IMG/VR virus record: IMGVR_UViG_3300020577_009322
Span: 91,464-155,463 of that record
Direction: 5' to 3' (one strand)
Length of the DNA stretch: 64,000 bases
Source: a virus
Lineage: Duplodnaviria > Caudoviricetes
In this document: positions 7,200 through 14,555 of the stretch, piece after piece
Position numbering within the stretch: position 1 is the stretch's first letter
Layout of the letters: each line of letters opens with the position of its first letter
Made by a program: the position numbers and the translations under genes
The notes under the pieces: generated by a model
The model's input: only the letters and a program-made list of their open reading frames with translations
Told to the model about the DNA's origin: nothing
Database searches by the model: none

Positions 7200-8171
7200 A
7201 TGCCTTGTAATACAACACCTTGTGATGATAAATGTTTACCTTATAATCCATGTTATGATGATTGTGGTTGTTTAAACCCAACTACTTTTGAGTGTGTAAC
7301 AAAACCTGGAACATGGCCTGCATTAGGAATTACTAATGATATGAATGGGGTAGAGGCTTTAGAAGCCTTAAATACCGTTATTAATAATTTAACTATAACC
7401 CCGCCATCTCCTGGATCAGACGTTTATGTTAAAGCTACATCTGCAGATACAACTGCAAACTACCTTTCTAGTAAGTTAGTAGTTGGAGCATTTTTAACAA
7501 AAACAATAGTAAATCCGTCAGGAAATGAACAAATTCGTCTGAATGTTTCACCTGCAGCCTTGGTTTCTTCTGATTCTGGAAATATTCTAGATATAGGAAC
7601 TGATGGAAAATTACGTGCTATAGTTACTGTTCCTTTACCTGATATTTCAGTAGTTGGAGGAAGTGGTGTAACTGTTACAGGAACAGGTCCATCATCAGAT
7701 CCTTTTGTTGTATCAATAAATCCATCAATAGAAGTAGTAAGAAATTGCTTTGATAATGTATGGAGAGATGTTACATTAGTTGCTACAGGAAATGCTAATG
7801 TTGTTTATGTTAGTGGAATTCCAAAATATCGTTATCGTTTTGATGGAACAATAGAATTTAAAGGATCAGCAACTTATACTGTAGCTTTTGGAGCATATTC
7901 TACAGGAAATAGAAAATATACAATAACAATTGGGAATATTCCAACAACATGTGTAACATCAGGTGAGCAAGCGGGAGTATCTGACCTGAAGAATATCAAT
8001 TATATAGATGTACCACAAGCTGGTGCAGATCAAATAACGCAACAATATGGGTATATTATTAGAAAATCAACAGCCAATCTAATAGTAGAATTTCAGTCTT
8101 CTTTTACCTCATCAACAAGTAAAACAATTGTTGTTAACTTCGAGGGAGCTATATCATACCCATCTCTTTAA
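7200..8171 (+). CDS. Fibre-like structural protein with Cys-rich N-terminus
   Basis: 323 aa; MPCNTTPCDDKC start; VTGTGxxxDP and SSDSGNILDIGTDGKL fibre-type repeats. Confidence 0.55.
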   Translation: MPCNTTPCDDKCLPYNPCYDDCGCLNPTTFECVTKPGTWPALGITNDMNGVEALEALNTVINNLTITPPSPGSDVYVKATSADTTANYLSSKLVVGAFLTKTIVNPSGNEQIRLNVSPAALVSSDSGNILDIGTDGKLRAIVTVPLPDISVVGGSGVTVTGTGPSSDPFVVSINPSIEVVRNCFDNVWRDVTLVATGNANVVYVSGIPKYRYRFDGTIEFKGSATYTVAFGAYSTGNRKYTITIGNIPTTCVTSGEQAGVSDLKNINYIDVPQAGADQITQQYGYIIRKSTANLIVEFQSSFTSSTSKTIVVNFEGAISYPSL

Positions 8172-8207
8172 AAACTCGTGGTTAGTTGGTTCTCCACAAA
8201 ATGAGTT

Positions 8208-8234
8208 AACGATCCGTTTCTACGGGTCGTTTTT
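8208..8234 (+). terminator. Intrinsic terminator ending the structural operon
   Basis: aacgatccgt-ttct-acgggtcgtt plus T-run. Confidence 0.8.
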
Positions 8235-8247
8235 ACTTTAAAATAAA

Positions 8248-8279
8248 TTTGGTAAATTAAAAATAAAATCGTATATTTG
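8248..8279 (+). promoter_or_regulatory. Bacteroidota-type sigma70 promoter (tRNA block 1)
   Basis: TTTG 8248-8251 and TATATTTG 8272-8279. Confidence 0.8.
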
Positions 8280-8283
8280 CACT

Positions 8284-8361
8284 ATGAAAGCAGTAGAAAA
8301 ATTGTATGGCTGCGGTTGTGGTAAACCAAAACCAGTAGTGGTTAAACCACCTTCAAGATAA
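8284..8361 (+). CDS. 25-aa micro-protein MKAVEKLYGCGCGKPKPVVVKPPSR
   Basis: ATG 4 nt after the -7 element; GCGCGK motif; below ORF-track cutoff. Confidence 0.55.
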   Translation: MKAVEKLYGCGCGKPKPVVVKPPSR

Positions 8362-8372
8362 AAATAAAAACT

Positions 8373-8459
8373 ATGATAACAGTAAATCATGCATGGCCCA
8401 TCTTTACGCAATGTCCAACAGGACAATGTGAGGGACTGTGTACGTGTATTAAGAATTAA
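8373..8459 (+). promoter_or_regulatory. Attenuator leader peptide L1 MITVNHAWPIFTQCPTGQCEGLCTCIKN
   Basis: His/Trp/Pro/Phe/Thr/Gln/Cys codons match downstream tRNAs; followed by terminator. Confidence 0.8.
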
Positions 8460-8479
8460 CTCTTAACCACAACCGAACT

Positions 8480-8507
8480 AACCCCTCCATAAAAAGAGGG
8501 GTTTTTT
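8480..8507 (+). terminator. Attenuator terminator T1
   Basis: aacccctc-cataaaaa-gaggggtt plus T-run, just before tRNA-Pro. Confidence 0.85.
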
Positions 8508-8512
8508 ATTAT

Positions 8513-8587
8513 CTAGATGTTCCACAGTTGGTTATATGGGCTTGCCCTGGAAGCAAGTGTTCGTCAGTTCGAATCTGACCATCTAGA
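8513..8587 (+). tRNA. tRNA-Pro(TGG)
   Basis: ctagatg/catctag acceptor; cttgc-CCTGGAA-gcaag; TTCGAAT T-loop. Confidence 0.85.
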
Positions 8588-8590
8588 CAT

Positions 8591-8662
8591 GCTTTCTTAA
8601 TAGTAATGGTAGCTACTCTGTTTTGTAATCAGAAAGTGTCAGTTCGAGTCTGACAGAAAGCT
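8591..8662 (+). tRNA. tRNA-Thr(TGT)
   Basis: gctttct/agaaagc acceptor; tctgt-TTTGTAA-tcaga. Confidence 0.85.
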
Positions 8663-8670
8663 CTTAACTT

Positions 8671-8742
8671 GGTCCTTTGGGTGAGTGGTTTAACTATTAG
8701 TCTGCAAAACTAATTACAGCAGTTCGAATCTGCTAGGGACCT
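8671..8742 (+). tRNA. tRNA-Cys(GCA)
   Basis: ttagt-CTGCAAA-actaa; U73. Confidence 0.9.
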
Positions 8743-8811
8743 CAAAGGCTTGTCCTTGAAACAACCTTCCCGTGGAGGGAACTGTAAGACAGTTTAAATA
8801 AGAGGATAGCT

Positions 8812-8883
8812 GGAAATATAACTCAGTTGGTAGAGTGCCAGATTGAAGATCTGGTTGCATCAGTTCGATTCTGATTATTTCCA
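8812..8883 (+). tRNA. tRNA-Phe(GAA)
   Basis: ccaga-TTGAAGA-tctgg; canonical cloverleaf. Confidence 0.92.
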
Positions 8884-8888
8884 CATAT

Positions 8889-8960
8889 ACGTGTGTAGTG
8901 TAGTTGGTAACACAGCAGTCTCCAAAACTGTATTCACCTGTTCGAATCGGGTCATACGTG
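8889..8960 (+). tRNA. tRNA-Trp(CCA)
   Basis: gcagt-CTCCAAA-actgt; G73. Confidence 0.9.
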
Positions 8961-8965
8961 CTTAT

Positions 8966-9036
8966 TTTCTTGTAGTGTAATGGTAACACATGAGATTTTG
9001 GCTCTCATATTTTAGGTTCGAGTCCTAACAAGAAAA
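8966..9036 (+). tRNA. tRNA-Gln(TTG)
   Basis: tgaga-TTTTGGC-tctca. Confidence 0.9.
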
Positions 9037-9038
9037 CT

Positions 9039-9111
9039 GGTGATTATAGCATAATGGTAGTGCAAAAGTTTGTGAAGCTTACAGGTGGGAGTTCGAATCT
9101 CCTTAGTCACC
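9039..9111 (+). tRNA. tRNA-His(GTG)
   Basis: G-1:C73; loop TTGTGAA. Confidence 0.88.
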
Positions 9112-9118
9112 CTTATAA

Positions 9119-9194
9119 ACTCCGTTAGCTAAACTGGATACGGCACCAGAATACGAATCTGGAGATTTTGAGGGTTCGAATCCTTCACGGAGTA
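9119..9194 (+). tRNA. tRNA-Arg(ACG)
   Basis: ccaga-ATACGAA-tctgg. Confidence 0.88.
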
Positions 9195-9247
9195 CAATTT
9201 TAAATAATAATTTTCCTAAAATAAAATATATACTATATCTTTGTTCT

Positions 9248-9433
9248 ATGATAGGAAAAATAATAAAATCAGATATGAAATCTAGGATCAGTTATAATAT
9301 AACTGGTTTAGATAAGGGAATATTATTTGTTAATAAAAATACATCATCATTATCTCCAGATGGATATGAAGGAAAATGTCCACAAGGGGAACTATTTAAC
9401 AATAATGGAAATAGTTGGAGATCGAGTTGTTGA
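9248..9433 (+). CDS. Small hypothetical protein
   Basis: 61 aa; TATCTTTG at 9236-9243 just upstream. Confidence 0.35.
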   Translation: MIGKIIKSDMKSRISYNITGLDKGILFVNKNTSSLSPDGYEGKCPQGELFNNNGNSWRSSC

Positions 9434-9489
9434 TAGAGGGAGACTTTCTATAGAAGTAGATGAGAATGGATATGTTACTATAAAATAAA

Positions 9490-9521
9490 TTTGGTAATTG
9501 TTAAAAATAGTTGTATATTTG
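9490..9521 (+). promoter_or_regulatory. Bacteroidota-type promoter (upstream of tRNA block 2)
   Basis: TTTG 9490-9493 and TATATTTG 9514-9521. Confidence 0.8.
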
Positions 9522-9564
9522 TGCTGCACTGACCAAGTAGGCGTGTTACTAAAAATATACAAAC

Positions 9565-9870
9565 ATGAAGAGTACAATTAGAGTGGACTTTCAGGGTCCG
9601 GAGACATCGTCTCAAAATGGTTTTGAACCAGTTATTAGAGTAAATTTAGTAGAAAGTGATGACACACGAGATAAGTTACTAAAGACATTCTTTCAGTCAT
9701 TAGGTGGAGAAAGTTCCTGGCTACATGTAAAACATGTAAAAATTGATCAATCGTGTCATTCTGGATTAATTAATGATAGTATAGTAATTACTCCAGTAAA
9801 AGAGGCTGATATTGAGAACTTGAAGAAAGAGATAGAAGATAGAATAAATGATAAGAGAAATATTTTTTAA
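9565..9870 (+). CDS. Hypothetical protein
   Basis: 101 aa ORF after promoter. Confidence 0.65.
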   Translation: MKSTIRVDFQGPETSSQNGFEPVIRVNLVESDDTRDKLLKTFFQSLGGESSWLHVKHVKIDQSCHSGLINDSIVITPVKEADIENLKKEIEDRINDKRNIF

Positions 9871-9887
9871 ACCTTAAATATAATAAT

Positions 9888-9998
9888 ATGATAATAGGAT
9901 TAATTATTAGTGGAGTAGTGGGTTTCATAGTTGGAGCCTTGGTATTTAGAAATAATGCTAAAAAGGGAGAAGAAATTATTGATAATCTTAAAAAGTAA
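9888..9998 (+). CDS. 36-aa single-pass membrane protein MIIGLIISGVVGFIVGALVFRNNAKKGEEIIDNLKK
   Basis: Hydrophobic helix plus charged tail; A-rich upstream region. Confidence 0.65.
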   Translation: MIIGLIISGVVGFIVGALVFRNNAKKGEEIIDNLKK

Positions 9999-10010
9999 TA
10001 AAGACAACTA

Positions 10011-10079
10011 ATGCAACAATTTTATATGATAGTTAGAAATATTTTAGGGGCGGATGAAAAATCTGGCTCTAGGGAATAA
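10011..10079 (+). promoter_or_regulatory. Attenuator leader peptide L2 MQQFYMIVRNILGADEKSGSRE
   Basis: Codons 6-17 cover all 10 amino acids of block-2 tRNAs; gctctaggg complementary to terminator 5' arm. Confidence 0.85.
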
Positions 10080-10104
10080 TTTTACTATCTTATAATAGAA
10101 AGTT

Positions 10105-10141
10105 AACCCTGGAGCATATTAAGCTTCAGGGTTTTTCTTTT
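10105..10141 (+). terminator. Attenuator terminator T2
   Basis: aaccctggagc-atattaa-gcttcagggtt plus T-run. Confidence 0.88.
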
Positions 10142-10146
10142 AAAAT

Positions 10147-10221
10147 ACCTTCGTAGCAAAATGTGGCTTTGCTCCTGACTTTTAATCAGAACAAAAATGG
10201 GTTCGACTTCCTTCGAAGGTA
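10147..10221 (+). tRNA. tRNA-Lys(TTT), atypical
   Basis: accttcg/cgaaggt acceptor; loop CTTTTAA; mismatches in anticodon and T stems. Confidence 0.75.
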
Positions 10222-10224
10222 CTT

Positions 10225-10299
10225 GGGATCTTAGCAAAAATGATATTTCTTCAGCCTCTTAAGCTGAATAAAAGTAGAGTTCGATTCTCACAGATCCCA
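10225..10299 (+). tRNA. tRNA-Lys(CTT), atypical
   Basis: gggatct/agatccc; tcagc-CTCTTAA-gctga; weak D-arm lacking GG. Confidence 0.7.
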
Positions 10300-10309
10300 C
10301 ATAAGTATA

Positions 10310-10341
10310 TTTGGTGGTTCGAAAATTATTTCGTATATTTG
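10310..10341 (+). promoter_or_regulatory. Bacteroidota-type promoter of the HNH gene
   Basis: TTTG 10310-10313 and TATATTTG 10334-10341; ATG at 10346. Confidence 0.8.
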
Positions 10342-10345
10342 ATAT

Positions 10346-10876
10346 ATGAAAGAAAGAATAGAACAATTAAGAAAAGAAGGAAAAAGTTATAGTGAAATAT
10401 CAAAGATAACTGGATTAGTCAAATCTACAATATCATACTATGTAGGAAATAGAACTGGAAAAGGTAAGCTAACAGCTGAAAAAAGAAATTGTAGAAATTG
10501 TGAAAAAGAAATCAGTTCTCCAAAAGTTTTCTGTGATAAAAAATGTGATTTTGAATATAAACAGAAACTTAGGTTAGATAAATTTGAAAAAAGCAATTTG
10601 TGTACAAATAATTCTATTAGAAAAGCACTTATTTCTATAAATGGAAATAAATGCAGTATTTGTGAAATCTCTGAAATATGGAATGATAGGAAATTAACTA
10701 TGCATGTAGATCATATTGATGGAAATTCTGATAATAATGATAATAAAAATGTTAGATTAGTATGTCCTAATTGTCATTCTCAACTAGAAACATCTAAAAA
10801 TAAAGTTAAAAAACAAACAAAAAGAAATAAATACTTAAGAAAATACAAAGGTTATATAGATGCCCCTGTCGTATAG
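10346..10876 (+). CDS. Free-standing HNH homing endonuclease with N-terminal HTH and Zn-finger
   Basis: CxxC pairs; HVDHIDGNSDNNDNKNVRLVCPNCHS. Confidence 0.9.
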   Translation: MKERIEQLRKEGKSYSEISKITGLVKSTISYYVGNRTGKGKLTAEKRNCRNCEKEISSPKVFCDKKCDFEYKQKLRLDKFEKSNLCTNNSIRKALISINGNKCSICEISEIWNDRKLTMHVDHIDGNSDNNDNKNVRLVCPNCHSQLETSKNKVKKQTKRNKYLRKYKGYIDAPVV

Positions 10877-10934
10877 TGATTTAATATCTCTCTCTTACAA
10901 AGAGAAGACGGCAGTTTGATTCTGCACAGGGGTA
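10862..10934 (+). tRNA. tRNA-Val(TAC)
   Basis: tctct-CTTACAA-agaga; T-loop TTTGATT. Confidence 0.8.
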
Positions 10935-10939
10935 CAAAT

Positions 10940-11011
10940 GGTTCTATAGTGTAATGATTAGCACAACTCTCTTCTAAAGAGTTAGTATAAGTTTGACCCT
11001 TGTTAGGACTA
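10940..11011 (+). tRNA. tRNA-Arg(TCT)
   Basis: actct-CTTCTAA-agagt. Confidence 0.8.
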
Positions 11012-11051
11012 CAGATGAGTTACCCTTCTCCGTGTATTAAAAAGGGATAAT

Positions 11052-11126
11052 GTCTGAATAGCTGAGTTGGTTTCAAGCACTTGACTGTTAATCAAGAGTA
11101 GTTGGGTTCGATCCCCAAATCAGACG
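11052..11126 (+). tRNA. tRNA-Asn(GTT)
   Basis: cttga-CTGTTAA-tcaag; G73. Confidence 0.9.
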
Positions 11127-11132
11127 CTTTAT

Positions 11133-11203
11133 TGTGCGGTGGTGTAATGGTAGCATATTGGGCTCATAACCCAATGATGAAAGTTCGACTCTTTCCTGCG
11201 CAA
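11133..11203 (+). tRNA. tRNA-Met(CAT), initiator-like
   Basis: ttggg-CTCATAA-cccaa with three consecutive G-C pairs. Confidence 0.85.
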
Positions 11204-11206
11204 CTT

Positions 11207-11422
11207 ATGAAAAATTACATAGAAGATCAAATTAGAAAAGGTTACAGGGTATACGACCTTAAAGAAATACTCGGAGAAACACCAATGCAATCAGATATAG
11301 ATAATTTGATTGAAAAATTAGGTCCTAATAAGTTAGGTGAAGTTGATGAAAATGGTTATCTTTACGTGAAAACAGATCAATCGTGGAGAAATATTTTAGG
11401 ACAGCGGATGGAGAAATGGTGA
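11207..11422 (+). CDS. Hypothetical protein (71 aa)
   Basis: Start reassigned to ATG 11207 because the track's 11102 start lies inside tRNA genes. Confidence 0.55.
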   Translation: MKNYIEDQIRKGYRVYDLKEILGETPMQSDIDNLIEKLGPNKLGEVDENGYLYVKTDQSWRNILGQRMEKW

Positions 11423-11856
11423 ATATAATCTCTCACTGTAGAGAAATATTAGCAAAAGAACCAGATGCTAAGATATTAATTGGAACTGACTCACAGGATG
11501 AGGATGGAAAAAGTAAGTATTGTACTGTAATAGTATTTAGATATGGATTACGTGGTGCTCACTTTATCTACAGTAAGGATGATAGGAAAAAGATAAGAGA
11601 TATTTTCACTCGTTTATTTACTGAGTGTGAGTACTCACTAGAAATTGCTGAGCATATAACTAAGAATACTAGTTATAAAGTATCAACAATAGAGTTAGAT
11701 TTCAATGATTTCAAGAAGACAAAATCAACACCTTTAATATCAGCAACAAAGGGATGGTGTGAATCTTTAGGTTACTCAGCTACTCTAAAAAGTGGTGAAA
11801 TGTTTGCTTGTAAAGCAGCAGATCATATCCTAAGACATCCATCATTATATAAATAA
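11383..11856 (+). CDS. RNase H-like YkuK/DUF458 family protein
   Basis: ILIGTDSQ...IELDFN...KAADH acidic motif layout. Confidence 0.8.
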   Translation: MEKYFRTADGEMVNIISHCREILAKEPDAKILIGTDSQDEDGKSKYCTVIVFRYGLRGAHFIYSKDDRKKIRDIFTRLFTECEYSLEIAEHITKNTSYKVSTIELDFNDFKKTKSTPLISATKGWCESLGYSATLKSGEMFACKAADHILRHPSLYK

Positions 11857-11884
11857 TACTTTCAAACAAAAATAAATTTAGTAA

Positions 11885-11958
11885 GCAGTATACGCATAAA
11901 TGGTGGTGCACCAGTCTTCCAAATTGGAATAGAGTCAGTTCGATCCTGACATGCTGCA
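11885..11958 (+). tRNA. tRNA-Gly(TCC)
   Basis: ccagt-CTTCCAA-attgg. Confidence 0.85.
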
Positions 11959-12020
11959 CCCTTAAGAGAGATTAAATAAAGTCTGCAGCTTTTGGCCAAT
12001 ATTGGTTCTCTCTTTTGCAG

Positions 12021-12092
12021 GGCCCTTTCGTCTAATGTGTAGGACGACGCTCTTTCCAAGCGTAGATTTCGGTTCGAATCCGTGAGGGGCTA
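12021..12092 (+). tRNA. tRNA-Glu(TTC)
   Basis: Glu-type D arm gtct...ggac; acgct-CTTTCCA-agcgt. Confidence 0.78.
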
Positions 12093-12098
12093 CAATAA

Positions 12099-12172
12099 GG
12101 TCTATGGATGTGGCAGGGTGTGGCTACTGGATTGTCAATCCAGGGAGACGGGTTCGATCCCCGTATAGACCG
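12099..12172 (+). tRNA. tRNA-Asp(GTC)
   Basis: ctgga-TTGTCAA-tccag; G73; atypical D arm. Confidence 0.8.
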
Positions 12173-12229
12173 CAACGAGGAACATGGTAATTCATGTCTG
12201 AGGCTGAAAGAAGCAATCCCCTCGTCTAT

Positions 12230-12302
12230 GCTTCTATAGCTCAATGGTCAGAGCAGGACGCTTATATCGTCAAGGTTTCCAGTTCGAGTCTGGATAGAAG
12301 TA
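12230..12302 (+). tRNA. tRNA-Ile(TAT)
   Basis: Loop CTTATAT; canonical D and T arms. Confidence 0.85.
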
Positions 12303-12307
12303 CATAT

Positions 12308-12380
12308 TGGAGTGTAGCTCAAATGGTAGAGCGCCTGCCTGATACGCAGGAGGTACAGGGATCGTTACCCTGCATTCCAA
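12308..12380 (+). tRNA. tRNA-Ile(GAT)
   Basis: cctgc-CTGATAC-gcagg; T-loop ATCGTTA atypical. Confidence 0.85.
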
Positions 12381-12507
12381 CGGAGTGTTACGCATAGCCT
12401 CTCAACGATGTAGCGTTTCTCCTCGGTAGCCCGTCGACGTAATCCGAGACAGTTCATTACCTAATAAGAATGAGTTAGGGAGATATGGGAAACCTGCTCC
12501 CGATTTT

Positions 12508-12580
12508 GGGGATAAAGCTCTAGTGGATGAGCATCTGCCTTGCACGCAGAAGGTTAGGAATTCGAGTTTCCTTATCTCCA
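12508..12580 (+). tRNA. tRNA-Ala(TGC)
   Basis: G3:U70 pair; tctgc-CTTGCAC-gcaga. Confidence 0.92.
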
Positions 12581-12588
12581 CAAATAAA

Positions 12589-12620
12589 TTTGGTAAATAT
12601 AAATATTTGTAGTATTATAT
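12589..12620 (+). promoter_or_regulatory. Possible promoter for tRNA block 3
   Basis: aaataaaTTTGgtaaat matches the 8241-8257 context, but the -7 element is degenerate (tattatat). Confidence 0.45.
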
Positions 12621-12626
12621 AATATA

Positions 12627-12698
12627 ATGAAGAAACTATATACATATTATTCGTTAAGTCTCTTGTCCTTAAATGGACTAGCTAGGAATACTATGTGA
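12627..12698 (+). promoter_or_regulatory. Attenuator leader peptide L3 MKKLYTYYSLSLLSLNGLARNTM
   Basis: 11 of codons 4-15 are Leu/Ser/Tyr; downstream tRNAs are Leu, Leu, Ser, Ser, Tyr. Confidence 0.88.
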
Positions 12699-12729
12699 TA
12701 ACAGTGGGCAATCGTTAGATCATTCGTGT

Positions 12730-12760
12730 AAATCCTGGCTTTAATTAGTCAGGATTTTTT
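12730..12760 (+). terminator. Attenuator terminator T3
   Basis: aaatcctggct-ttaatt-agtcaggattt plus T-run, 4 nt before tRNA-Leu. Confidence 0.88.
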
Positions 12761-12764
12761 ATTT

Positions 12765-12838
12765 GTGGGTATGGCGGAATTGGAATACGCAACAGGTTTA
12801 GACCCTGAAATTTAAGAGTTCGAGTCTCTTTACCCATA
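12765..12838 (+). tRNA. tRNA-Leu(TAG), short variable arm
   Basis: Leu-type D loop gaattggaata; loop TTTAGAC; A73. Confidence 0.85.
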
Positions 12839-12844
12839 CTATAT

Positions 12845-12918
12845 GTCCTTGTGATGGAATTGGAATACATGTCAGACTTAAAATCTGAATTTTACGGGTT
12901 CGAGTCCCGTCTTGGACA
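12845..12918 (+). tRNA. tRNA-Leu(TAA), short variable arm
   Basis: tcaga-CTTAAAA-tctga; two T-T mismatches in acceptor stem. Confidence 0.8.
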
Positions 12919-12923
12919 CATAA

Positions 12924-13006
12924 GGAAGAGCGCATTGTGAGAGCTTATCCGTCCTGAAAACGGTGAAGGTGTAATAGCTGTGAGAGTTCGATTCTCTCCT
13001 CTTCCG
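12924..13006 (+). tRNA. tRNA-Ser(TGA)
   Basis: Loop CCTGAAA; long variable arm; G73; degenerate D arm. Confidence 0.75.
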
Positions 13007-13011
13007 CTTAT

Positions 13012-13094
13012 AGAGAAATGACAGAGTGGTAATGTAGCAGTTTGCTAAACTGTAGATGGTAACACATCCGTGAGTTCGATCCTCACTTTCTCTG
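13012..13094 (+). tRNA. tRNA-Ser(GCT)
   Basis: gcagt-TTGCTAA-actgt; long variable arm; G73. Confidence 0.9.
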
Positions 13095-13099
13095 CAGAT

Positions 13100-13183
13100 G
13101 GGTATGATGGTAAATGTGGTTAAATCAGGAGACTGTAAATCTCTCGTCATTAGACTGTTGGAGTTCGATTCTGTACATACCCA
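13100..13183 (+). tRNA. tRNA-Tyr(GTA)
   Basis: ggaga-CTGTAAA-tctct; long variable arm. Confidence 0.85.
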
Positions 13184-13200
13184 CAATTATTTTTTTATTT

Positions 13201-13243
13201 AAATGGAGTCTTGTACCTTTGTTGGGCTAAGACTCCATTTTTT
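13201..13243 (+). terminator. Terminator closing the tRNA cluster
   Basis: aaatggagtctt...aagactccattt plus T-run. Confidence 0.75.
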
Positions 13244-13359
13244 GTTCAGGCAGGAGGATACACTATGAAAATAGTGCTACTACGTCTAAGGATGCTTATG
13301 TCCCCTAAGTAGATTGGGAGGGGGCTGGGGGGTGGGTCAGAAAATAAATTAAAAATAAA

Positions 13360-13391
13360 TTTCGCTATATCAAATATTCATTGTAACTTTG
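13360..13391 (+). promoter_or_regulatory. Bacteroidota-type promoter
   Basis: TAACTTTG 13384-13391, with tttcg 24 nt upstream. Confidence 0.6.
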
Positions 13392-13411
13392 TGGAAACAA
13401 AACAGAAAAAT

Positions 13412-13573
13412 ATGACAAAGAAAATTACAGAACACTTGAAAAGAAACAACAGTTATTTTAAATGGTCAGCTAAAAGATTAGCAGATAAGTTTGGTTGTTC
13501 AGAAAGAACTATCACAAATATTATCAAGACTCTTGCACCAGTTAAGAGAACTTATTTAAATAACTTAAAGTAA
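13412..13573 (+). CDS. Small HTH DNA-binding protein
   Basis: SAKRLADKFGCSERTITNII helix-turn-helix; ATG 13412 preferred over GTG 13391. Confidence 0.7.
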   Translation: MTKKITEHLKRNNSYFKWSAKRLADKFGCSERTITNIIKTLAPVKRTYLNNLK

Positions 13574-13577
13574 GAGA

Positions 13578-14414
13578 ATGTTTAAGAAGGAAATAGAAGC
13601 TTTTTTACTAGAAAAAAGAGGATACTTGAAGAAGTCACCTTTACATGTGGCTAAAGCTATATGGAAATCTTCAATAAAACACAGTAAACCAAAGACTCAA
13701 GCAGATGTAGAGAAAGAATTAGAGGTAATCAAGGATGTTCAGGCCACAATGAGACTAGTAACTGTCCATCCACAGGATTCTGCAGATAACAGTATTTTGG
13801 AAGCTTACGAAAAGATAGTAGCTGAGAAAAATCGTCCAAGAAAAAAGTTATTCTTTGATCTAGAAGTATCAGCTAATATCGTATTCTCTTGGAGAATTGG
13901 TAAGGATGTAGATCTATCACCAGATAGTATTATTCAGGAACGAGCTATTATATGTGCTTGTTATAAGTGGGAAGGAGATGATAGAGTTTATTCTCTAAAG
14001 TGGAATAAAGGTGATGATAAAGATTTATTAGAAAAATTCTCAAAAATTATAGATTCAGCAGATGAGGTAGTTACCCAAAATGGGGATGCATTTGATATTA
14101 AGTGGTTAAGAACACGCTGTATCTATCATGGAATTCCAGTATCACCAAAGTTCAATTCAATTGATACTTTAAAAATGGCCAGAAGTGGGTTTAAATTTAA
14201 CTCCAATAAATTAGATTATATGGGAAAGTTTCTGTCACTTGGACAGAAAATAAAGACAGAATATAATTTATGGAAGGATATTACCTTAAATAACAGTAAG
14301 GTGGCTATGGATAAGATGGTTGAGTATTGCAAACAAGATGTTACACTGTTAGAACAGGTATATCAAAAATTACAGGCTTTCTCACCAGTTAAGAAGTTCA
14401 AATACAAACTGTAA
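13578..14414 (+). CDS. DnaQ/RNase H-like 3'-5' exonuclease
   Basis: Exo I FFDLE, Exo II QNGDAFD, Exo III YCKQD. Confidence 0.88.
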   Translation: MFKKEIEAFLLEKRGYLKKSPLHVAKAIWKSSIKHSKPKTQADVEKELEVIKDVQATMRLVTVHPQDSADNSILEAYEKIVAEKNRPRKKLFFDLEVSANIVFSWRIGKDVDLSPDSIIQERAIICACYKWEGDDRVYSLKWNKGDDKDLLEKFSKIIDSADEVVTQNGDAFDIKWLRTRCIYHGIPVSPKFNSIDTLKMARSGFKFNSNKLDYMGKFLSLGQKIKTEYNLWKDITLNNSKVAMDKMVEYCKQDVTLLEQVYQKLQAFSPVKKFKYKL

Positions 14415-14436
14415 TAAAAGTCCAAAACTACTGATT

Positions 14437-14459
14437 ACCCCTTATTCTTAAGGGGTTTT
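14437..14459 (+). terminator. Intrinsic terminator
   Basis: acccctta-ttct-taaggggt plus T-run. Confidence 0.75.
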
Positions 14460-14555
14460 CTGTTTTTAACATATGAGGTTAATTTGTGTTTCTTATTAAT
14501 TTTTAGTATATTGTAGTAGGAATAGTCCATAATTAAATAATTTTATAAGTGAAAT

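Follow-up and report, generated by a model that had tools for sequence, protein, structure and literature searches.

The window analysed here, 64,000 nucleotides long, forms the final 64 kb of a phage record in IMG/VR (IMGVR_UViG_3300020577_009322) that is complete at 155,463 bp and has terminal repeats and a GC content of 31.6%. Positions 8500-13200 of the window hold a tRNA array of 24 genes called by ARAGORN and one weak Ser(TGA)-like gene, arranged in three blocks, and a small open reading frame (ORF) and an intrinsic terminator lie ahead of each block. We focused on the third of these leader regions, unit 3, which precedes tRNA genes for Leu, Leu, Ser, Ser and Tyr and is considered here as a candidate transcription attenuator controlled by translation of its ORF. 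The following features were located in and around unit 3:

12589-12620, + strand, promoter-like site of the Bacteroidota type (TTTGG at 12589-12593, then 19 nt, then the -7 box TATTATAT at 12613-12620)
12627-12698, + strand, leader ORF of 23 codons, starting Met-Lys-Lys (ORF list)
12636-12671, + strand, sensor run of 12 codons (codons 4-15), 11 of them for Leu, Ser or Tyr (LYTYYSLSLLSL)
12637-12668, + strand, region 1, the sensor codons, which without a ribosome pair with region 2 as the 5' strand of a long imperfect hairpin (minimum free energy [MFE] structure)
12675-12700, + strand, region 2, predicted to pair with region 1 or with the 5' arm of the terminator, antiterminator core at 12680-12687 (folding, duplex prediction, covariation)
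12701-12729, + strand, spacer hairpin between the stop codon and the terminator (MFE structure)
12733-12754, + strand, intrinsic terminator stem-loop (-11.0 kcal/mol), region 3 at 12733-12740 and region 4 at 12747-12754
12755-12762, + strand, terminator T tract, with about 3 nt left to the start of tRNA-Leu at 12763-12765 (sequence, terminator scan)
12765-12839, + strand, tRNA-Leu(TAG), 75 nt, short variable loop (ARAGORN, Rfam)
12845-12919, + strand, tRNA-Leu(TAA), 75 nt, short variable loop (ARAGORN, Rfam)
12924-13006, + strand, tRNA-Ser(TGA)-like gene, non-canonical (tRNA-Sec model, 24.8 bits)
13012-13095, + strand, tRNA-Ser(GCT), long variable arm (ARAGORN, Rfam)
13100-13184, + strand, tRNA-Tyr(GTA), long variable arm (ARAGORN, Rfam)
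13203-13244, + strand, hairpin (13203-13212 with 13229-13238) and T tract, where the transcription unit probably ends (read from the sequence)

The first-pass annotation had read 12627-12698 as a Leu/Ser/Tyr leader covering the five codon boxes of the downstream block, and the ORF is indeed there, with 11 cognate codons out of 12 and every box represented. Codons 4-15 are CTA, TAT, ACA, TAT, TAT, TCG, TTA, AGT, CTC, TTG, TCC and TTA, which sample the CTN, TTR, TCN, AGY and TAY boxes. Among the 833 ATG-initiated ORFs of 15-40 aa in the 155-kb genome, this leader alone has at least 11 cognate codons and all 5 of the 5 anticodons within a 12-codon window, and the joint statistic was not matched by any of 30,000 random codon strings. 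Coverage of the five boxes taken by itself is not significant for one leader, being attained by 29 of the 833 small ORFs and 476 of the 30,000 random strings; it becomes significant only because it is combined with the run of cognate codons. The promoter-like site is of the form TTTG...TAnnTTTG, which is the consensus of Bacteroidota promoters. Its -7 box ends 6 nt upstream of the leader ATG, and a leaderless or nearly leaderless mRNA is therefore predicted; in seven unit-3 leaders examined, the six other than that of the window have a consensus -7 box 4-7 nt before the ATG. Between the terminator T tract and the first tRNA there is no space for a second promoter.

The terminator extends over 12730-12757 in the terminator scan and over 12733-12754 as folded. 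The scan takes loops of up to 8 nt, so the hairpin at 13203-13244 is not in its list. The pairing of agctagga (12680-12687) with tcctggct (12733-12740), also proposed in the first-pass annotation, proved to be real, with 8 bp including one G:U, and constitutes the core of the predicted antiterminator. Positions 12680-12687 are the best duplex partner of the 5' arm of the terminator (-12.3 kcal/mol), 2-5 of 300 dinucleotide shuffles being as good. A gap of 7 nt separates the sensor run from the antiterminator strand, and another of 7 nt separates that strand from the stop codon. We modelled folding with a ribosome footprint spanning -15 to +12 nt around the A site. The probability of the terminator was 0.96 without a ribosome, when 12637-12668 pairs with 12675-12700, and again 0.96 with a ribosome at the stop codon; it was 0.11 with the A site on sensor codon 12, and the 2:3 helix was then the minimum-energy structure. 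The switch score of unit 3 in the window was 0.85, versus 0.04 +/- 0.12 in 150 leader shuffles, none of which scored as high, and the switch also exceeded shuffles in relatives L002, L006 and L098 (0 of 60 shuffles each). Most units of all three kinds switch in this model. Unit 3 has the short 5' ORF, the cognate codon run, the terminator ahead of the genes, the mutually exclusive 1:2, 2:3 and 3:4 structures and the stall geometry of an attenuator.

Relatives, referred to here by L numbers, were found by alignment of the upstream neighbour gene, which led to syntenic arrays in viral and metagenome contigs, and a pattern scan added three. The 15-base sensor-run pattern used in that scan is unspecific: it matched at least 120 loci, and among the matches listed 4 have a Leu, Ser or Tyr tRNA downstream, 3 of which carry a real unit (L044, L098 and L130). 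Among the matches of a second pattern there were only already known relatives; the RNase H-like ORF of the array, used as an anchor, gave no relatives in viral contigs, and the search with the neighbour protein gave no match in GenBank phages. In total, the unit precedes the Leu block in ten phages (that of the window and nine related or more distant ones), including two in GenBank, Lbo-JY46 (PP438436.1) and Cellulophaga phage phi4:1 (NC_021788.1). The unit-3 leaders of the ten phages each contain 9-12 consecutive Leu/Ser/Tyr residues in scrambled order. In the leaders compared, the reading frame, the position of the AUG and the Lys-rich codons 2-3 are conserved and the nucleotide sequence of the run is not; nor is the sequence of the spacer hairpin at 12701-12729. 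In six unit-3 leaders measured, the run ends 1-9 nt before the antiterminator strand, the strand 0-10 nt before the stop codon and the stop codon 25-34 nt before the stem; the last distance led us to reject direct melting of the terminator by the ribosome. The antiterminator strand is always found within the ORF, towards its end: it stops 0-26 nt short of the stop codon across the ten units and 0-10 nt short of it in seven of them.

These observations bear on a switch made of RNA alone, in which a tRNA, a protein or a small molecule would bind the leader RNA in the style of a T-box or TRAP and the ORF would stay untranslated. The alternative structures exist regardless of ORF translation, and T-box elements do sense tRNAs. 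However, cmscan with E values up to 1 matched no Rfam family, T-box (RF00230) included, to 12582-12764, the larger region 7500-14500 giving only tRNA-type matches. Furthermore, a single specifier cannot explain 5-12 different tRNAs, the modelled switch requires the footprint exactly on the sensor codons, and conservation is seen in the frame, in the Lys-rich codons and in the spacing of 4-7 nt between the -7 box and the AUG rather than in the nucleotides of the run. We consider such a switch highly improbable.

In 9 of the 10 phages the antiterminator is the best partner of the 5' arm of the terminator, with 0-8 of 300 shuffles as good, and its sequence differs between phages. Antiterminators pair better with the terminator of their own phage than with swapped ones; in 20,000 permutations, the observed advantage was reached 66 times for unit 3, 6 times for unit 2 and 7 times for unit 1. 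MAFFT alignments of whole units (A2 and A4) lose the register of the terminator arm, and covariation was therefore counted on segments bounded by the duplexes (A5). In this 8-sequence alignment, all 48 of 48 cells of the core helix are paired and 5 of the 6 pairs change on both sides, a result not obtained in any of 500 shuffles; registers slid along the helix are 29-58% paired.

The leaders follow the tRNA blocks. In the seven phages with a complete set of three units, the share of leader residues 2-17 cognate to the leader's own block is 76%, 79% and 63%, compared with 1-25% for the other blocks. Anticodon coverage in the window gives the same diagonal pattern, each leader covering its own block (5 of 5, 11 of 12 and 7 of 8 anticodons) and the other blocks poorly. 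Natural changes in the blocks are accompanied by changes in the leaders. Three relatives in which tRNA-Cys is the only tRNA have a leader homologous to that of unit 1, with five Cys codons and without His, Trp or Phe; in L010, blocks 1 and 2 lack Arg tRNAs and the matching sensor runs lack Arg; and one relative, whose neighbour gene is 63% identical, has neither tRNAs nor leaders. In Lbo-JY46, tRNA-Cys sits in the Lys/Asn/Gly block, the leader of which has six Cys codons, and the Pro/Thr/Phe/Gln/His/Arg/Trp leader has none. In phi4:1, Leu(TAG) and Leu(TAA) are grouped with Pro, Glu, Gln, His and Arg(ACG); the leader of this block has 11 of 11 cognate residues, with TTA and CTA among the codons, and the sensor run of the Tyr/Ser/Asn/Trp/Phe leader is without Leu. 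Thus, because the leaders change with the partition and content of the tRNA blocks, the leader tracks the block rather than preserving a fixed peptide. In both GenBank phages the unit consists of a promoter, a mini-ORF that spells the block and contains the antiterminator, and a terminator directly next to the first tRNA; their leader ORFs are unannotated or "hypothetical" in GenBank.

Two side observations concern these natural variants. The single-tRNA unit, made up of a Cys-rich leader, the antiterminator/terminator and tRNA-Cys, occupies 11224-11441 in L004, 11219-11434 in L005 and 11219-11434 in L021. In phi4:1 (L152), the annotated start of the hypothetical protein gp075 (1690-1809) falls inside the promoter box, and the real start of this leader is probably an ATA or GTG near 1720-1726.

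A functional micro-protein would account for the presence of an ORF, the hairpin then merely ending its transcript, the tRNAs arising from unregulated read-through or upstream transcription and the codon match being incidental. Small conserved ORFs do occur in the array (for instance, the Cys/Gly-rich ORF at 8284-8361), and unit-1 leaders have a conserved Cys-rich C-terminal part. By contrast, unit-3 peptides keep their composition and not their order, and the correspondence between leader and block is significant and shifts when the block changes. A micro-protein would also leave the co-varying antiterminator within the ORF without a function, and relatives devoid of tRNAs have no leader ORFs. 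Hence, we give this explanation very little weight.

Codon choice provides a further line of evidence. When distinct leaders were pooled, T-ending codons in the four-fold boxes served by tRNAs with U at position 34 (U34) numbered 16 versus 78 expected, and C-ending and G-ending codons 47 versus 10 and 37 versus 9 expected, respectively. TCT accounts for 0 of 18 Ser TCN codons and CTT for 1 of 16 Leu CTN codons. In two-fold NNY boxes T-ending codons are kept and C is not enriched, on which ground a general GC enrichment was rejected as the cause of the C- and G-ending codons. According to modelling, rare synonymous codons raise the sensitivity of an attenuator (PMC1183508), a result which the leader codon bias fits. 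Selection on codon identity in the leaders, argued in the first-pass annotation from the codons of one leader, is thus supported by the avoidance of T-ending codons in the pooled relatives, not by the one leader of the window. The accompanying idea that the leader senses each phage isoacceptor is not supported as it stands, CTC and TCC not being cognate to the phage U34 tRNAs by ordinary wobble.

Taken together, the results, all obtained in silico and covering anatomy, alternative structures, covariation and codon-tRNA match, make it very probable that unit 3 is a ribosome-mediated (leader-peptide) transcription attenuator of a five-gene tRNA operon in a Bacteroidota phage. The first-pass annotation had advanced this reading, and the computable predictions that such an attenuator makes, concerning layout, RNA switch, conservation, co-variation and codon identity, are all borne out. 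As to how the attenuator would work, we infer that the ORF is translated, that transcription and translation are coupled in the host, and also the direction and the physiological trigger of the response. Transcription would start a few nucleotides before the AUG, and a ribosome would load at once. With Leu, Ser and Tyr aminoacyl-tRNAs plentiful, it would reach the stop codon and cover region 2 (12675-12700), regions 3 and 4 would fold into the terminator, and RNA polymerase would stop at the T tract before tRNA-Leu. Should any sensor codon be read slowly, the ribosome would stall on region 1 and the freed region 2 would pair with region 3 (12680-12687 with 12733-12740); this would block the terminator, and the polymerase would go on to transcribe the Leu, Leu, Ser, Ser and Tyr genes. 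If translation were absent, regions 1 and 2 would pair and the terminator would form. The tRNA products would quicken reading of the leader, making the unit a negative-feedback homeostat on decoding capacity, and the two sister units would do likewise for the other 20 tRNAs.

Several observations weigh against the attenuator. The modelled switch of unit 3 in the window is partial, with a terminator probability of 0.4-0.7 at most stall positions and 0.11 at one, and it is absent for unit 3 of L008, unit 1 of the window and unit 1 of L010. The -7 box of unit 3 in the window deviates from the TAnnTTTG consensus, and the antiterminator of L044 is weak. The ends of the A5 segments were chosen from predicted duplexes, which biases the covariation count towards structure, and the common ancestry of the pooled relatives inflates the significance values obtained from them. 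In unit 3 of L008, L017 and L018 and in unit 1 of L002, L007 and L008, the terminator is separated from the tRNAs by an HNH gene that has a promoter of its own, so that the tRNAs can be made there without read-through. The leader in Lbo-JY46 retains Tyr codons, no tRNA-Tyr having been found in its block, and the Ser(TGA) gene of the window may be defective, decaying or atypical. Finally, CTC and TCC are present in all five leaders first compared and are not read by U34 tRNAs under ordinary wobble; these codons may instead report host tRNAs.

What the attenuator senses is a separate question. It could operate as described and respond to a general slowdown of translation or to amino-acid starvation, acting as a timer that might, for example, induce the tRNA genes at a late stage of infection, when host shut-off has slowed translation. 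A stalled ribosome cannot distinguish a missing from an uncharged tRNA, as in the trp and his attenuators (PMC1183508), and the presence of CTC and TCC, beyond the ordinary wobble of the phage U34 tRNAs, fits such a signal as well. However, each leader is limited to the amino acids of its own block and changes with it, which a slowdown sensor would not need, and the codon choice is specific to U34-served boxes. We therefore view the timer as unlikely. We tentatively suggest, at somewhat less than even odds, that the three units form a codon-resolved tRNA homeostat, which would sense depletion or cleavage of host tRNAs and induce only the block that is needed. Possible triggers are the shut-off of the host, defences based on anticodon nucleases, and codon usage that differs between phage and host. 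In this view the sensor codons would be selected for rarity and isoacceptor by isoacceptor, with ATA and ATT for the two Ile tRNAs, AGA for Arg(TCT) and NNT avoided in U34-read boxes.

The five isoacceptors expected downstream were largely recovered: Leu(TAG), Leu(TAA), Ser(GCT) and Tyr(GTA) were called, and Ser(TGA) turned out to be non-canonical. The latter gene (12924-13006) received no ARAGORN call even at relaxed thresholds; its acceptor stem and T arm are good and its anticodon is UGA, but position 33 is a C and the D arm is unclear. Leu, Ser and Tyr are the class II tRNA families, and the first-pass annotation had equated the block with them. Both tRNA-Leu genes are class-I shaped, with a variable loop of 4-5 nt and without the long arm typical of bacterial tRNA-Leu, and phi4:1 places its Leu tRNAs in a Pro/Glu/Gln/His/Arg block; on these two grounds the class II principle was rejected. 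Judged from the arrays compared, the Leu/Ser/Tyr grouping is specific to the lineage of the window phage. In L002, the Leu(TAG) gene is 87 nt long and Leu(TAA) is also 75 nt.

The sister units are both on the same strand as unit 3:

8373-8501, + strand, sister unit 1 (leader ORF 8373-8459, terminator 8482-8501), followed by the block Pro, Thr, Cys, Phe, Trp, Gln, His, Arg(ACG)
10011-10131, + strand, sister unit 2 (leader ORF 10011-10079, terminator 10107-10131), followed by the block Lys, Lys, Val, Arg(TCT), Asn, Met, Gly, Glu, Asp, Ile, Ile, Ala

By the joint codon statistic, both sister leaders are as unique for their own blocks among the 833 small ORFs as the unit-3 leader is for its block. 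As for the host, a large structural protein of the phage has distant relatives only in Flavobacterium phages, Cellulophaga phages and "Leptolyngbya phage Lbo-JY46"; given these relatives and the TTTG...TAnnTTTG promoters, a Bacteroidota host is likely.

Other elements are interspersed in the array. The tiny ORF at 8284-8361 has a conserved Gly-Cys-Gly-Cys-Gly-Lys/Gly motif and a Lys/Pro-rich tail, with counterparts in L002 (11094-11138), L004 (about 11500-11600) and L011 (11070-11135). It is found behind a promoter in every relative, the tRNA-less one included, and therefore looks like a micro-protein rather than a leader. ORFs for HNH-type endonucleases with their own promoters are scattered through the arrays (10346-10876 in the window, about 16909-17340 in L008 and about 11455-11924 in L002). 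An RNase H-like ORF (PF04308, E=6e-19) is kept inside the array (11383-11856 in the window, about 13484-13957 in L002) and may have a role in array processing. Four inter-tRNA spacers of 55-126 nt (12382-12507, 8744-8811, 11961-12020 and 12174-12229) are neither tRNA nor ORF and have a G+C content above that of their surroundings; no Rfam family matched them at E up to 1.

Leader-peptide attenuators are classically those of enterobacterial amino-acid operons, with the leaders trpL, hisL, leuL, thrL, ilvL and pheL. Like the trp-type attenuators modelled in PMC1183508, the phage units have a short leader with regulatory codons, 1:2, 2:3 and 3:4 pairings, a stop codon that lets the finishing ribosome cover region 2, and a preference for rare synonymous codons. 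Multivalent leaders are also found among known attenuators, as in thr (Thr/Ile) and ilv (Ile/Val/Leu). Unlike trp-type attenuators, the phage units would regulate tRNAs and not enzymes, so that the product itself would be read by the sensor, a direct feedback; a single leader represents 3-10 amino acids and resolves them into individual codon boxes; and the units are phage-borne, with Bacteroidota-type promoters, an apparently leaderless mRNA and no sequence homology.

Among genes of the translation apparatus, pheST of E. coli is controlled via the pheM leader. A genome-wide attenuator survey likewise describes a His leader upstream of hisS/hisZ paralogs in bacilli (PMC2965389). The phage units resemble these synthetase leaders in that leader-peptide attenuation with matching sensor codons is applied to a gene of the translation apparatus, but the synthetase leaders control the enzyme for one amino acid, whereas the phage units would control whole tRNA blocks. 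The phrases "tRNA gene" and "tRNA operon" are absent from the survey (PMC2965389), and our full-text literature searches yielded no account of tRNA genes governed by a leader peptide. With T-box riboswitches, which control aminoacylation genes, the phage units share a choice between terminator and antiterminator that depends on the state of tRNA; a T-box, however, binds one uncharged tRNA directly, without translation, whereas each phage unit deals with many tRNAs. The mechanism is of a known kind, and the tRNA target, the checklist-like sensor and the phage setting are new.

The roles of phage tRNA genes are debated; proposals include compensation for codon usage and replacement of degraded host tRNAs, and to our knowledge the regulation of their expression is essentially unaddressed. 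Escape from tRNA-cleaving defences is a further proposal (10.1101/2025.02.04.636281). If the attenuator reading is correct, phages would measure decoding capacity codon by codon and dose tRNAs accordingly, and classical attenuation would extend from enzymes to RNA products, with direct feedback. The leaders would also provide a readable sequence signature of which tRNAs a phage treats as one regulatory group, and the units would be compact natural parts for synthetic sensors of tRNA availability. The cultured phages phi4:1 and Lbo-JY46 carry the design, which makes it directly testable. Should the units in addition form a homeostat, the tRNA arrays of phages would serve as counter-measures that are regulated and limit themselves, not as constitutive cargo, and such units would be widespread among Bacteroidota phages.

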